Source: Eledone cirrhosa (taxonomy: Eukaryota). Taken from it: DNA of 64,000 nt. A program made the position numbers and the translations under genes. The notes under the pieces are model-generated. The model was not told the DNA's origin, ran no database searches, and saw nothing but the letters and a program-made list of their open reading frames with translations. This document shows, one piece after another, positions 40,094 through 50,656 of the stretch (position 1 is its first letter; each line of letters opens with the position of its first letter). The stretch is from NCBI GenBank assembly GCA_964016885.1, contig OZ024742.1, positions 106,516,001-106,580,000 on the forward strand, given 5' to 3'.

Positions 40094-40394
40094 TATAAAG
40101 AAAAAGGGATGAAATCGAAAATGCAACTGAAGTCTTATTTTTTTTTAAAATATATATATTTATTTGGTTCCTTTACCGGTTTCGCAGTTCTTCTGCTTTT
40201 CAAAAGGTGAGTTGAGATGGAGGGTCTGTGGTTTTTCTCACATCATGTGAGAAAAACCACAGACCCTCCATCTCAACTCGCCTTTTGAAAAGCAGAAGAA
40301 CTGCGAAACCGGTAAAGGAACCAAATAAATATATATATTTTTTTAAAAAATAAGACTTCAGTTGCATTTTCGATTTCATCCCTTTTTCTTTATA
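40094..40394. mobile_element. Near-perfect 300-bp palindrome with two U3-A8 HHRs (40170-40207 minus, 40281-40318 plus)
   Basis: CCTT-TTGAAAA-GCAG aagaa CTGC-GAAA-CCGG-TA-AAGG in both arms. Confidence 0.8.
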
Positions 40395-40548
40395 TATATA
40401 TATATAAATATATATATACGTATATATATATACATATATATATATATATATATACAAATATATATATATATATATATACATATATATATATATATATATA
40501 CATATATATATATATATATACATATATATATATACATATATATATACA

Positions 40549-43500
40549 TAACTTTGAATAACTTTGAAATGTTTTGGCCAGTATTGGCCCAGGCCATGTC
40601 TAACTTAATAGCACCACCTGGCGAAGTCTTTCAATTCAGGATTTGGGCACCATGGCCCATTCGAAAAGGGAATTACTGTTTGCGGAGACATATCCCGGTG
40701 TGGGTGGTTTGTCCGGGATTACTTGGAGGAATTTGTCCAAAGACTTCTTGAATTTTGTGTGGTCAGTTTCTGTTTTGACGTGTCTTGGTGTGATGTTGAA
40801 GAGAGCAGTGCCAATTGAGGTGAAATAATTGTGCCGTATTGTTGTTATGAGTTGCGATTTAGATTTTTGTTTGGGACGGATAGCACGGGGCCCAAGCCTT
40901 GGGTGTATTTTGAAGGTGATGCCAACATCATTTGGGCAGTGCTGATGAAACATTTTCCACATCATGCAGATAATATAACGCTCACGGCGACGTTGGAGTG
41001 AGTAAGTTTCAGCTTTTCTAGTCGACCCCAGTAGTCAAGGTCTGACATGCCATCTATCTTTTTCGTGATTGCCCTTTGGGGAGCTTCAAGTTTCATGATA
41101 CTTTGTTTCGTGTGGGGAGACCACAGTATTCAAGGTGTGGTCGGGCAAAAGTGGAGAAGGATAATGGTGTGGGAATCTCTCTACTGGAAGGTTCTGAGGA
41201 TCCAGGAACACATTTTGCGGGCCATGTCAACTTTGCTGCTTATATGCGTGGCCCAGCTTATGTTGCTGTCCACAGTTACTCCCAAGTCTCTGATGTTGTT
41301 AGATGCCACGAGAGTTTCACCGGAGGGAAGGGAGTACGGGAGTTTCAGAGCATCCTCTTTTCCAAAGTGGATCTGTTCGAATTTGTCTTCGTTCAGTAAC
41401 ATGTTGTTCTTTTCCGCCCATTGGGTAACATCCAGTAGGTCTGACTGAAGGCTTATCCGGTCATCCACGCCATTGGTGACCTTCTGGAGCTTGGAATCAT
41501 CAGCGAAAATTCTAATGTTGCTGTGTTTGATGATGTCAGTGATGTCATTAATATAGATGATGAAGAGAAGTGGGTCCAACACAGTGCTTTGTGGGACCCC
41601 ACTACTGACTTTGGCTGGGCTGGATTTGACTCCTTCGACTACAACATGTTGGGTTCTGTTTGACAGGAAGCACTTGATCCACTGCAGCAGCTTTCCAGTG
41701 ACACCAATATTGGACAGCTTTCTTAGTAGAATGTTGTGATCAACCCTGTCAAAGGCCTTGCTGAAATCAAGGTAGATAACATCAGTGTTGGAACCCTCTC
41801 CCAAGGCTCTCAAAATGTCATCAAAGTGATGCAGTATATGCGTCAGGCAATCCCTTCCATTACGGAATCAATGCTGGTTGGAGTTCAGCATATCGTTACT
41901 CTCAAGGAAGTGAGTCATTCGCGATCTCACCACTCTCTCAAATACCTTAATGATATGAGAGGTGAGTGAGATTGGACGGTAATTCACGGCAAGGGATCTG
42001 TTTCCTTTTTTGAAAACTGGGATAACAGACTGGGATAGAAGGTTTTCTGGCACATATCCAGCATCCAGTGAGTTCCGCCACAGATTGGCAAGAGTAGATG
42101 CAAGTTGGTGTTGACACGCCTTCTAGACACAAACAGGGAACCTATCGAGACCTACTGCTGAATTATGCTTGATTTCCTTTATTGCCGCTAAGACATCAGG
42201 GGCGCCAAACGTTATGTCCGATAAGGTGTAATGGGGAGTAACATCGCCGATACAACCCAGATCGGCCATATCAGGATTGCTGAAAACAGAGCAGTATTGT
42301 TTCTGCAGTATCTCACCCATGGTTTTAGCATTATCTTGAAGAGTGCCATTTTCATCAATTAGAGGGCCAACAGTAGAGCCAGTGATTTTGTGTTTTTTTT
42401 GCAAATGAAAAGAACACTTTGGGATTGAGTTTAATCTTCTCAATGGCCCAGGCCTCTTCAGCTCTTCTCTGATTGTTGATGATAGACATCATATTGTTTT
42501 GGAGGTTATGTTTTTTAATCTCTAGTGATGAAATGACAGTCAAGTTGGTGTGTTGCTGCTGACAGTATTTCAGCTTGTTGATTTTTTTGTTAGTTCTCTT
42601 AATTTTCCTGATGAGCGTTTTTCTATTTCTAGGGATTCTGCTCTTAGATTTGTTTATAGTTCTTAATAGCGTGTGTTTTGCACATGTTTGTAACAGTGTC
42701 CACAAATGTCTGCCAGGACTTTTTGATGTTAGTGGGTGTGTGAGTGTGCGTGAAGGACCAGTCGACATATGCAAGATCATGACTGATCGCTTCCCAGTTT
42801 GCATTGTGGAAATCCATAGCGTCAAACGGATGGACAGGAGAGATGACATTGGGTTTGTATATTGGACGGTGGAATCTCAGATCACAGAGAACCATGTCAT
42901 GATCAGAGAGTAGAGTTTTCTCCACTGCAATATTGTGGATATTGTCAGTGTGATTGCTGAAAATTAAGTCTAGGACGTTTTTGTGGCACCTCGTTGGTTC
43001 GAGCACCAGTTGGGACAGGAAGAAATCATCCATGAAGACAAGAAGCGATTCCACTGCTTCCCTGTCAGAGGTTGAGGCAGAAGAACCTGGTGGCAGGCTG
43101 TTTGTGGACCAGTCAACTCCGGGGAGGTTGAAGTCCCCCATCATTAAGATGTTGTCAGGGTGACACTCTTGGATGAAACACTTTATGCTGTTGAGGCAAT
43201 CCTTGAAGCATGGTAAAGGCGTTTGGGGTGGCCTATAGAGCCCAACTACTATTAGGTTGTTGGTCTGACTGAATACAGTGACTGCTTCGCAGTATCCAAT
43301 AGAAAATATGTTCATAGCCTCTGTTGAGAAAGAATTATAGACATAAATGGCAGTCCCACCCTTTCTTCTGCCAGCGCGATCAGCACGGATGGCTTTGAAA
43401 TTTTTCACTTTCACCTCAGCTTCCAAGTGGAAGAGATGGGTTTCAGTGAGACGAAGAAAGGGATGTGGTTTGGATGGACATCAACCCTGTCCTCCAGGAA

Positions 43501-43630
43501 TTTGATCTTCCATTTTTTAGTATTGGTGGAAGGGCTGATGCCTTGGGCGTTAAGCAAAAATGTTGACGCGAGAGTGGATGGTTTTAATTGTTTTGGTGTG
43601 TTGATAATTTGTTTGTTTGTTAATGGCAGC
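40549..43630 (-). mobile_element. CR1-group LINE ORF2 (AP endonuclease + RT), frameshifted
   Basis: LLNAQG, YRPP, MGDFNLP, LDLIF, SDHDMV; NYRPISLTS; YLDFSKAFDRVDH; SGVPQS; FADDSKL; 3' tail (TTCAAAGTTA)2. Confidence 0.92.
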
Positions 43631-43631
43631 A

Positions 43632-44291
43632 ATATATATATATATATATATATATATATATATATATATATATATATATATATACATATATATACATATA
43701 TATATACATATATATATACATATATATTTATATATATACATATATATATATACATATATATATACATATATATATACATATATACATATATATACATATA
43801 TATATACATATATATATATATATATATATATATACATATATAAATATATATATACATATATATATATATACATATATATATATATATATATATATATATA
43901 CATATATATACATATATATATACATATATATATATATATATACATATATATATATACATATATATATATATATATATACATATATATATATACATATATA
44001 TATACATATATATATACATATATATATACATATATATATATATACATATATATATATATATATATATATATATATATATATATATATATATACATATATA
44101 TATATACATATATATATATATACATATATATATACATATATATACATATATATATACATATATACATATATATACATATATATATATATATACATATATA
44201 TATATATATATATATATATATACATATATATAAATATATATATACATATATATATATACATATATATATATATATATATATATATATATAT
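43632..44291. repeat. (TA)n/CA microsatellite, ~660 bp
   Basis: Direct reading. Confidence 0.98.
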
Positions 44292-48907: not shown

Positions 48908-49337
48908 TGTAGTGACCTACAATCCGCGGGCTCACATACATTCTCTGTGCGTGATTTGGCTCAGCTCAGCCAATCAGCGCCAGGAGAAGAGGATGTATCC
49001 CTACGCGTCCTGAGGGAGAAATAGCCCTCGAAGATTTGAGGAATCTCACTCTTGCAGCTCGACCACGCTAAGGTAAAACACCACTTGTTCTTTTGCTCCG
49101 TAAGCACAAACAATATGTAACGACGCAACAATTTTACTACGGACCTGGCCAAACGCCTCAGCCAGTCGACCGTATTTTCTCTTGTAATCTTAATTGAATT
49201 ATTTCATTATTCTTGGAATCCCAACTTAATTCACTTCTTAACCTTTGTTAATAAATTATGTAAAAACAAGCTAAAGTCGTTGTCGATATTCCTATCATAT
49301 CTTTCTACCAAAGATGGTTCCTCGTGGCAACATTACA
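48908..49337 (+). mobile_element. Probable solo LTR (~430 bp)
   Basis: TGTAGT..ATTACA termini, CCAAT, AATAAA; interrupts the PLE; no clean TSD. Confidence 0.6.
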
Positions 49338-49368
49338 ACTTCTAAACATAACTCTCTGCTAAAGACTC

Positions 49369-49763
49369 ATCCGTCTTGTGTACTGTGTATTGAAGAAAGG
49401 ATAAATATTCTAAGGAGATTACGCCATAGTGATTGCCTAAATTCAAGAATTGAAATATTCTCACGTTGTCCACACGTCTGGAAACACCTCTTGCATAACT
49501 ACAAAGCTCCGGATTGAATAACAGCGACATTCTAATATTCTAATCAACTCGAACAATTTATTCCGAACATTCGCAGTTATCTCCCCGACACTATTCGCCC
49601 GTGGTTTTGTATCGTTTGGGTGAAGTGACTGTTCTGCGCGTGCGCGTTCATACGGTTGTTTTTCCTGTTCCGTATAACCATTGCCAGTCCGAGCTGAAGA
49701 TCCGCATAAGGTGAAACAATTGTTCTCGGTATGGTGAACTAACTGTTGTGTTACTACTTCTAC
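49369..49763 (+). mobile_element. Penelope 3' end/pLTR (HHR-like motif 49691-49727), inverted relative to 46434-46822
   Basis: PSCVLCIEERINIL..RCPHVWKH; GAG-CTGAAGA-..-GAAA-CAATTG-TT-CTC. Confidence 0.85.
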
Positions 49764-50569
49764 CAAACTCATCCCATGGATTGAGTGCTCTACCACTACG
49801 GATATTACCTTCCAGTGTATTTATATATTTATTTACACAGAGTGTAGTGTTGTGGGAACAGATTTCCCTTAATTTTTGGAGGAGGCACGGCGTTCCCTTA
49901 CTATATTAAATACATCCAATTTAAAGACACTAAAAAAACATTCCTTGCCCAAAACATAAGGAACATTCATCAACCATTTCAAAATTCTTTAATTCTACTG
50001 AACTGTTGAGTCATTATCGCATTACGTACTAAATTTATTGCAGATTGGCGGCCGTTCCCCTCACATTGATGTTAAAACATCTGGTTTAAACAGTTTTAGT
50101 CTGTTATTCTTATTGGTATAAACAGTCTTAGTCTTTTATTCTTATTGTATTTTACTTTAATTCGTTGGTATGAAATATTATTCTTTTAATAAACAGCAGA
50201 AACATGAAACATTTTTTTTTAAATAATATGCTTTCACGTGAACATACTGGAGGCAGAACATATGTTCTTCACCTCACACTTAGTTCTTTACTCCCGACAC
50301 CCAAAAGATCGATGCTAATCATATTTCGCTGAAACTGTTGCAAGTCAACACTTTTTGAAAAACATGTACAGATAGGGAGTGTTCCAGAGTGTCGACATTT
50401 TGAGAAAAAAGGATTGGACATAATGCTTCTTCTAGCAATGAACCTACATGCAATCCGGCCTACCCTTCACAGCACTTCTATCTTGACCGCTAGCCACGCG
50501 ATGTTTTCCACCCCATTTGAATTCGTTACTAACGGCGATCAATTTGGAAATTTCGCTTCTGACTGAGGG

Positions 50570-50656
50570 AGTCTCTTGAAAAGCTCGGAGCCTCGTGGAT
50601 AATGCAACGATTAGACATTCCACAAGGTACAAGCGAAACTATCGATAGTCGGGACT
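50570..50656 (+). ncRNA. Hammerhead ribozyme, U3-A8 core (GUC)
   Basis: AGTCTC-TTGAAAA-GCT..GTGGA..TCCAC..AGC-GAAA-CTATCGATAG-TC-GGGACT. Confidence 0.72.

Follow-up and report, generated by a model that had tools for sequence, protein, structure and literature searches.

The stretch analysed here (the window) comprises 64,000 nucleotides of Eledone cirrhosa contig OZ024742.1 (assembly GCA_964016885.1, positions 106,516,001 to 106,580,000, forward strand). It is AT-rich and dense in microsatellites and retroelement fragments, and the host genome measures 3.0 Gb. The window carries hammerhead motifs, of which 15 belong to families with a C3-G8 core pair (CTGANGA) and six to families in which the same two positions read U3-A8 (TTGANAA). 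The latter, assigned to four abundant repeat families (1 to 4) and to family 1b, a relative of family 1, are the subject of this analysis and are listed in Table 1, together with a C3-G8 relative of family 3. The layout of a type I hammerhead, with a core N3-U-G-A-N-N8-A, GAAA, a UH site, three helices and an open helix I, is present in all four families.

Table 1 Hammerhead motifs of U3-A8 families in the window and associated features (positions are those of the window; ORF, open reading frame)
Feature	Position	Strand	Details
Family 4 hammerhead, re-parsed	219-354	-	core TTGATAA 349-343; GAAA 265-262; predicted cut between 224/223
Family 1b copy, U3-A8 with C at position 13	39576-39605	+	element ~39118-39715
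Inverted pair of two 5'-truncated family 1 ends	40094-40394		151-nt arms; (TA)n insertion; no ORF
Family 1 hammerhead, mirror copy	40170-40207	-	core 40203-40197
Family 1 minimal type I hammerhead	40281-40318	+	core TTGAAAA 40285-40291; predicted cut 3' of 40314
Family 2 hammerhead	46067-46202	+	core 46074-46080; 8-nt palindromic helix III; predicted cut 3' of 46195
Family 3 hammerhead	50570-50656	+	core 50576-50582; 12-nt palindromic helix III; GUC site; predicted cut 3' of 50650
C3-G8 sister of family 3	51444-51935	+	65% identity; core at 51559; other sister copies at 31319 and 38551

The family 1 motif and its mirror copy are exactly as the original prediction had described them, with a helix I of 4 bp, a helix II of 4 bp, GAAA, a 6-nt palindromic helix III and a UA site; they represent a single family present as an inverted pair, and not two. 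Both arms of the pair are 96–97% identical to family 1. Because the two motifs lie on opposite strands, a dimer cannot form from one transcript, and the pair is predicted to fold into a single long hairpin (150-bp) that would bury the motif. The family 2 motif was likewise found as predicted, with a helix II of about 100 nt whose first pair is a C.A mismatch; a mismatch also opens helix II in family 4. Position 46181 is G in the window copy and C in 28 of 30 family 2 copies, so that one helix II pair is lost and a strict descriptor misses the motif. The family 3 copy, within an element at about 50425-50965, has the helix I (6 bp), the palindrome and the UH site (GUC) that had been proposed. 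A palindromic helix III, which permits dimers, is thus shared by families 1–3, and family 4 has a non-palindromic stem-loop of about 35 nt instead.

The fourth motif of the original prediction (302-352) was correct in its core, but its GAAA, its palindrome and its site were wrong. We rejected this parse, which is non-palindromic and has a helix I of 3 bp; related subfamilies retain TTGANAA and not the nearby GAAA, and conserve instead a GAAA 77 nt past the core. The revised motif has a GUC site (226-224) and a 5-bp helix I with its 3' strand at 223-219; when three subfamilies are compared, both helix I and helix II show pair changes. It lies in window 1-808, which holds 1.3 copies of a ~606-nt unit. 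The family 1b copy is a fifth U3-A8 copy that had been overlooked.

A first descriptor, with positions 3, 7 and 8 left free, matched the two family 1 motifs and the family 3 motif. A wider descriptor returned seven motifs in the window (four C3-G8, three U3-A8), against none in the reversed and none in the complemented sequence and a mean of 0.1 over 20 local shuffles. In 800 kb evenly spaced over the genome it returned 31 motifs (24 C3-G8, three U3-A8, four other and no U3.G8), with three in the reversed control and about 2.3 after shuffling. At the Rfam gathering score there were no matches at any of the six loci tested, so the practical point that standard searches miss these motifs holds. 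The C3-G8 motifs of the window also score under the cut-off, which means that the Rfam model is insensitive to such hammerhead forms. Matches of Rfam Hammerhead_1 below the gathering score occur at 4224-4268, 9092-9136 and 11816-11860, two of them inside a 486-nt inverted repeat.

Family 1 has 11,820 exact matches to a 28-letter pattern in which positions 3, 7 and 8 were free, and about 11,700 of them are U3-A8. In a hand count from listings with flanks slightly longer than this pattern, 61 copies lack U at position 3 (34 C, 15 G and 12 A, every one with A8) and 47 lack A at position 8 (23 G, 14 C and 10 T), while C3-G8 is found in none of the 11,820. The single mismatches, 34 C3-A8 and 23 U3-G8, are scarce compared with U3-A8, although among dead copies this low share reflects the rate of neutral decay only and is not in itself evidence of selection. 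In families 2, 3 and 4, U3-A8 is present in 30/30, 29/30 and 30/30 of the best copies, chosen by likeness to those of the window. As a control for decay we used one C3-G8 family, where 74 copies with U3 comprise 73 U3.G8 and a single U3-A8. Since the state is family-wide and decay of copies yields single changes (73:1), U3-A8 is the norm of these families and was fixed in their source elements, not by decay of copies.

Around the core the helices covary among relatives (as read from alignments, without a formal covariation statistic); in family 3, for example, helix III is one palindrome in 12/30 copies and a doubly changed version in 5/30. Position 7 is free, being A or T in family 3 and T, A or G across clade 4. 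No variant of the family 1 core reached 10% in DNA contigs from four sequencing runs, a result that is silent on expression. In two other DNA runs, about half of the family 1 depth belongs to a subfamily with a helix I of three pairs and a mismatch (L018:1495-1496).

We then asked which elements carry the motifs. Walking upstream from family 1 leads to an ORF, open for up to 775 amino acids, with a reverse transcriptase (RT), a CX4CxxC linker and a GIY-YIG endonuclease; against Pfam, RVT_1 falls under the cut-off and GIY-YIG over it. In 7/8 extended loci the motif lies about 1.0 kb 3' of the stop codon. The passages cited here of Craig et al. 2021 (PMC8557442) give CX2-5CxxC and CCHH as marks of Neptune/Nematis, and RWK, DKT and CxCX5C as marks of Hydra. 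Family 1 is thus the 3' pseudo-long terminal repeat (pseudo-LTR) of a Penelope-like element (PLE), which by these features is of Neptune type (Neptune or Nematis). In one locus, the family 2 motif lies downstream of a same-strand endonuclease, which clusters (support 97/96) with the Hydra-type endonucleases of its sister families, which carry all three Hydra marks; in two loci the sister families follow a Hydra RT-endonuclease. This one direct locus and the sisters place family 2 at the 3' end of a Hydra-clade PLE. An early label of the endonuclease seeds as Naiad was wrong, the features being Hydra-type, and two rows of the endonuclease tree, pen27372 and L129 (both frame-shifted or off-domain), were given no weight. 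Families 3 and 4 consist of ORF-less partial tandems with units of 0.56-0.7 kb and ~606 nt, and are likely derived from PLEs. The ORF at 853-1722 was rejected as a parent of family 4, which is downstream of it on the same strand in 0/30 copies; its own tail has a C3-G8 motif. Copies that are truncated and inverted were observed, as was insertion into (TA)n.

The four clades show no mutual similarity at E < 0.001, and three of them have sisters with C3-G8, so that the claim of the same double change in unrelated families stands. Family 2 is 64-66% identical to three C3-G8 subfamilies, which share its helix III and differ from it in helix I by covariation. The sister of family 3, called 3s, has C3-G8 in 23 and U3.G8 in two of 25 copies, and its clade comprises two U3-A8 subfamilies (3 and 3b) and five C3-G8 subfamilies (split 78/89, unrooted). 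Families 1 and 1b cluster together (91/95) and are adjoined by a C3-G8 family (94/97; endonuclease 48% identical); another two C3-G8 families branch outside this group. In clade 4 there are four U3-A8 subfamilies, 63-79% identical, and no C3-G8 member was found. Because three families have homologous C3-G8 sisters, pair 3-8 is likely to have changed doubly on at least three separate occasions, and for clades 1 and 2 a direction from C3-G8 to U3-A8 is supported. Among about 45 family entries, compiled in part from a library that took in C-G and U-A matches only, 11 are U3-A8, about 30 C3-G8, one U3.G8 and none C3.A8. The open 800-kb scan likewise revealed no repeated family with an unpaired 3-8, and for the single U3.G8 and C3.A8 descriptor matches (L055, L198) the sequences compared contained no further copy.

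Taken together, we consider it probable that these motifs are hammerheads at the ends of PLEs (families 1 and 2, and likely families 3 and 4) in which U3-A8 is the norm, and that active source elements made the compensatory switch from C3-G8 to U3-A8 at least three times. The route would likely have passed through a U3.G8 wobble, that is, through two transitions that an AT-rich genome may have favoured. In the parent elements the motif would cut a precursor RNA; families 1-3 would do so as dimers formed by way of their palindromic helix III, and family 4 as a monomer. By analogy with published work on PLEs, cleavage would probably be slow and protein-assisted. The window copies, truncated insertions without ORFs, are probably inert passengers. 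In the predicted folds, the minimum-energy dimer holds helices I-III in families 2 and 3, the hammerhead dimer of a typical family 1 copy is within 1.4 kcal/mol of the minimum, and helices I and II form in the family 4 monomer.

Several points weigh against this reading. Self-cleavage is a prediction from sequence; helix III is absent from the predicted minimum-energy monomer of family 4, and the window copy of family 1 has a predicted fold 4 kcal/mol off the hammerhead dimer, inside the 150-bp hairpin. No linked ORF was found for families 3 and 4 among 30 + 30 loci, the trees of their clades are unrooted and short with the two core columns left in, and the placement of the C3-G8 sister of family 1 depends on two 65-aa fragments. 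Two further families have amplified with altered cores. Family 1b (loci L344-L358), whose motif lies downstream of a Neptune-type ORF 47-55% identical to that of family 1, has C13 in 99/100 of the matches listed out of 4,101 exact ones. Its helix I is reduced to three A-U pairs, and helix II is preserved by a compensatory pair change. A change from A to C at position 13 (A13C) is damaging to the hammerhead core, and the hammerhead dimer of family 1b is modelled at 10 kcal/mol over the minimum; it has nevertheless spread to those 4,101 exact copies. The second, a clade 4 family (L359-L370, from L077:330-540), has the core U3-C4-G5-A6-U7-G8-A9 in 12/12 copies with its long helices intact, is nested next to family 4 among U3-A8 relatives (95/93), and has spread as well, with 1,931 first-look candidates. 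Finally, hammerhead mutants of an anole PLE were without effect on insertion in vitro (PMC11167929).

The A13C and U3-C4/G8 variants would thus either still cut or show that cutting is unneeded for spread. The claim that selection, rather than decay, maintains U3-A8 is accordingly divided: decay is excluded, but selection for cleavage is weakened by the amplification of two families with such cores fixed. The fold could instead be maintained for a structural or protein-binding role, with catalysis weak or dispensable and U3-A8 tolerated through AT-biased mutation, as are A13C and U4C with G8. Both altered families retain helices II and III, the compensatory change in family 1b fits such a role, and so do the insertion result in the anole, the low activity that minimal PLE hammerheads show in vitro (PMC4209133) and the spread of Naiads without canonical hammerheads (PMC8557442). 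We nonetheless regard this explanation as unlikely, given that the 3-8 pair is part of the catalytic fold and is unpaired in only one of the ~45 family entries, and that G5, A6, A9, G12, A14 and the UH site are retained in every family examined. Rather doubtful too, but worth stating, is the idea that Penelope hammerheads have in U3-A8 a second stable state, reached repeatedly, which opens the way to further core changes such as A13C and U3-C4/G8. If this were true, the families would provide a natural, phylogenetically paired mutant series, with the hammerhead fold retained and its catalytic core relaxed or assisted by protein. The families with A13C and with U3-C4/G8 offer a natural test of whether PLE hammerheads need to cleave.

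Several switches in active source elements also explain the sister families better than a single old U3-A8 origin in the Penelope-like lineage, with apparent unrelatedness due to fast-diverging or swapped terminal repeats. U3-A8 is indeed old in clade 1, being common to families 1 and 1b despite the divergence of their ORFs, and in clade 4, where it is shared by the four subfamilies; no parent was found for families 3 and 4, each of which could go back to the same origin as family 1 or family 2. Families 2 and 3, however, each align over more than 200 nt to their own C3-G8 sisters and not to one another, families 1 and 2 belong to separate PLE clades and are both surrounded by C3-G8 relatives, and a single origin would require several exact double reversions. 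We therefore give a single origin very little credence, and for families 1 and 2 it is largely refuted.

For the frequency of U3-A8 in the genome, we searched 53 motif representatives over 900 kb (90 stretches, 0.03% of the genome), a sample that misses rarer families. Of 124 copies assigned, 119 remained after five copies of descriptor cluster D24 were removed; D24, which also had one copy in the window that was left out of the counts, and D28 were judged to be chance. U3-A8 families account for 28 of the 119 copies (10 of them family 1b) and C3-G8 families for 91, of which 83 are still C3-G8, and by this measure the window is ordinary for its genome. A U3-A8 share of about a quarter is rough, because the library is biased to the families that were followed and two tandem arrays account for at least 14 of the C3-G8 copies. 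The original prediction had termed U3-A8 rare, which fits neither these counts nor those of minimal PLE hammerheads in Schistosoma mansoni, where U3-A8 is given at about 1,300 versus about 2,000 motifs in the cited part of Cervera and De la Pena 2014 (PMC4209133). With CUGANGA as a fixed search pattern, about one in four hammerhead copies of this sample would be missed. Chance TTGANAA matches or decayed C3-G8 copies, which might be suspected because TTGAAAA is frequent in AT-rich DNA, D24 and D28 resemble chance, one sampled copy of a C3-G8 family has drifted to U3-A8 and the earlier parse of 302-352 was itself a chance match, are refuted by thousands of copies with the same state, by shuffles that give about 0.1 motif per window and by the 73:1 preponderance of single changes in decay.

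The U3-A8 variant has already been published for PLEs and is not itself new. Natural covariation at 3-8 including U3-A8, with swapped pairs active in vitro, was described by Perreault et al. 2011 (PMC3088659), and the motifs here share with those variants the compensatory change and the mismatch at the first helix II pair; in its cited passages U3-A8 is termed rare, and family states with A13C or U3-C4/G8 do not appear. In the anole PLE hammerhead, single mutants at 3 or 8 abolish cleavage and the double mutant partly restores it, with protein required for cleavage (PMC11167929). The three pairs of sister families that differ at both positions add evolutionary support for the 3-8 pair within PLEs.

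The closest known system is the Cercyon PLE of S. mansoni (PMC4209133), with type I, pseudo-LTR hammerheads that have U3-A8, a palindromic helix III and a short helix I, occur as single truncated copies and close opposite-strand pairs, and make up a large minority of all motifs. In contrast with Cercyon, a single genome here has U3-A8 in four or more clades that do not align with each other, Neptune-type and Hydra-clade elements among them, and three of these clades have C3-G8 sisters; helix II reaches about 100 nt, and helix III of family 4 is long and of the monomer type. With the endonuclease-bearing Hydra and Neptune PLEs (PMC8557442) the elements share a C-terminal GIY-YIG, the clade marks, pseudo-LTR hammerheads, inverted 5'-truncated copies and (TA)n insertion. 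The cited passages of that paper give canonical hammerheads for Hydra and contain no U3-A8, and the assignment of family 1 to Neptune or Nematis is by sequence features. Non-LTR retrozymes are non-autonomous PLE derivatives (PMC7229834; bioRxiv 10.64898/2026.07.22.740005). Families 3 and 4 resemble them as ORF-less partial tandems in which each 0.6-0.7 kb unit carries a single type I hammerhead, but are mostly 1.x-mers or fragments instead of long arrays, and are known here from DNA alone. A clade-by-clade count of U3-A8 origins was not found in the literature covered, which leaves out most subscription papers.

The 15 C3-G8 copies of the window are at 1969, 8001, 8247-8291, 8433-8477, 8691, 22609, 24001, 27019, 29597-29628, 31319, 38551, 44781, 45248-45319, 51559 and 53198, several of them at the ends of Hydra-type elements. 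Broken Hydra-clade RT-endonuclease ORFs are found at 24219-26401 (+), 47685-49514 (+), 46678-47681 (-) and 11050-11352 (-), and this clade, with many families in the sample, looks both abundant and diverse genome-wide. Retrozyme-like arrays with one C3-G8 hammerhead per unit were seen outside the window, with units of 310 nt (L165:7953-9843) and ~482 nt (L191:456-3396). In addition, the window contains long near-perfect inverted repeats at 5150-5387, 52736-52917, 58979-59087 and 62155-62260, and inverted repeats at 52782-52888 and 59010-59116 match the sequence just 3' of a family 1b end in L148.

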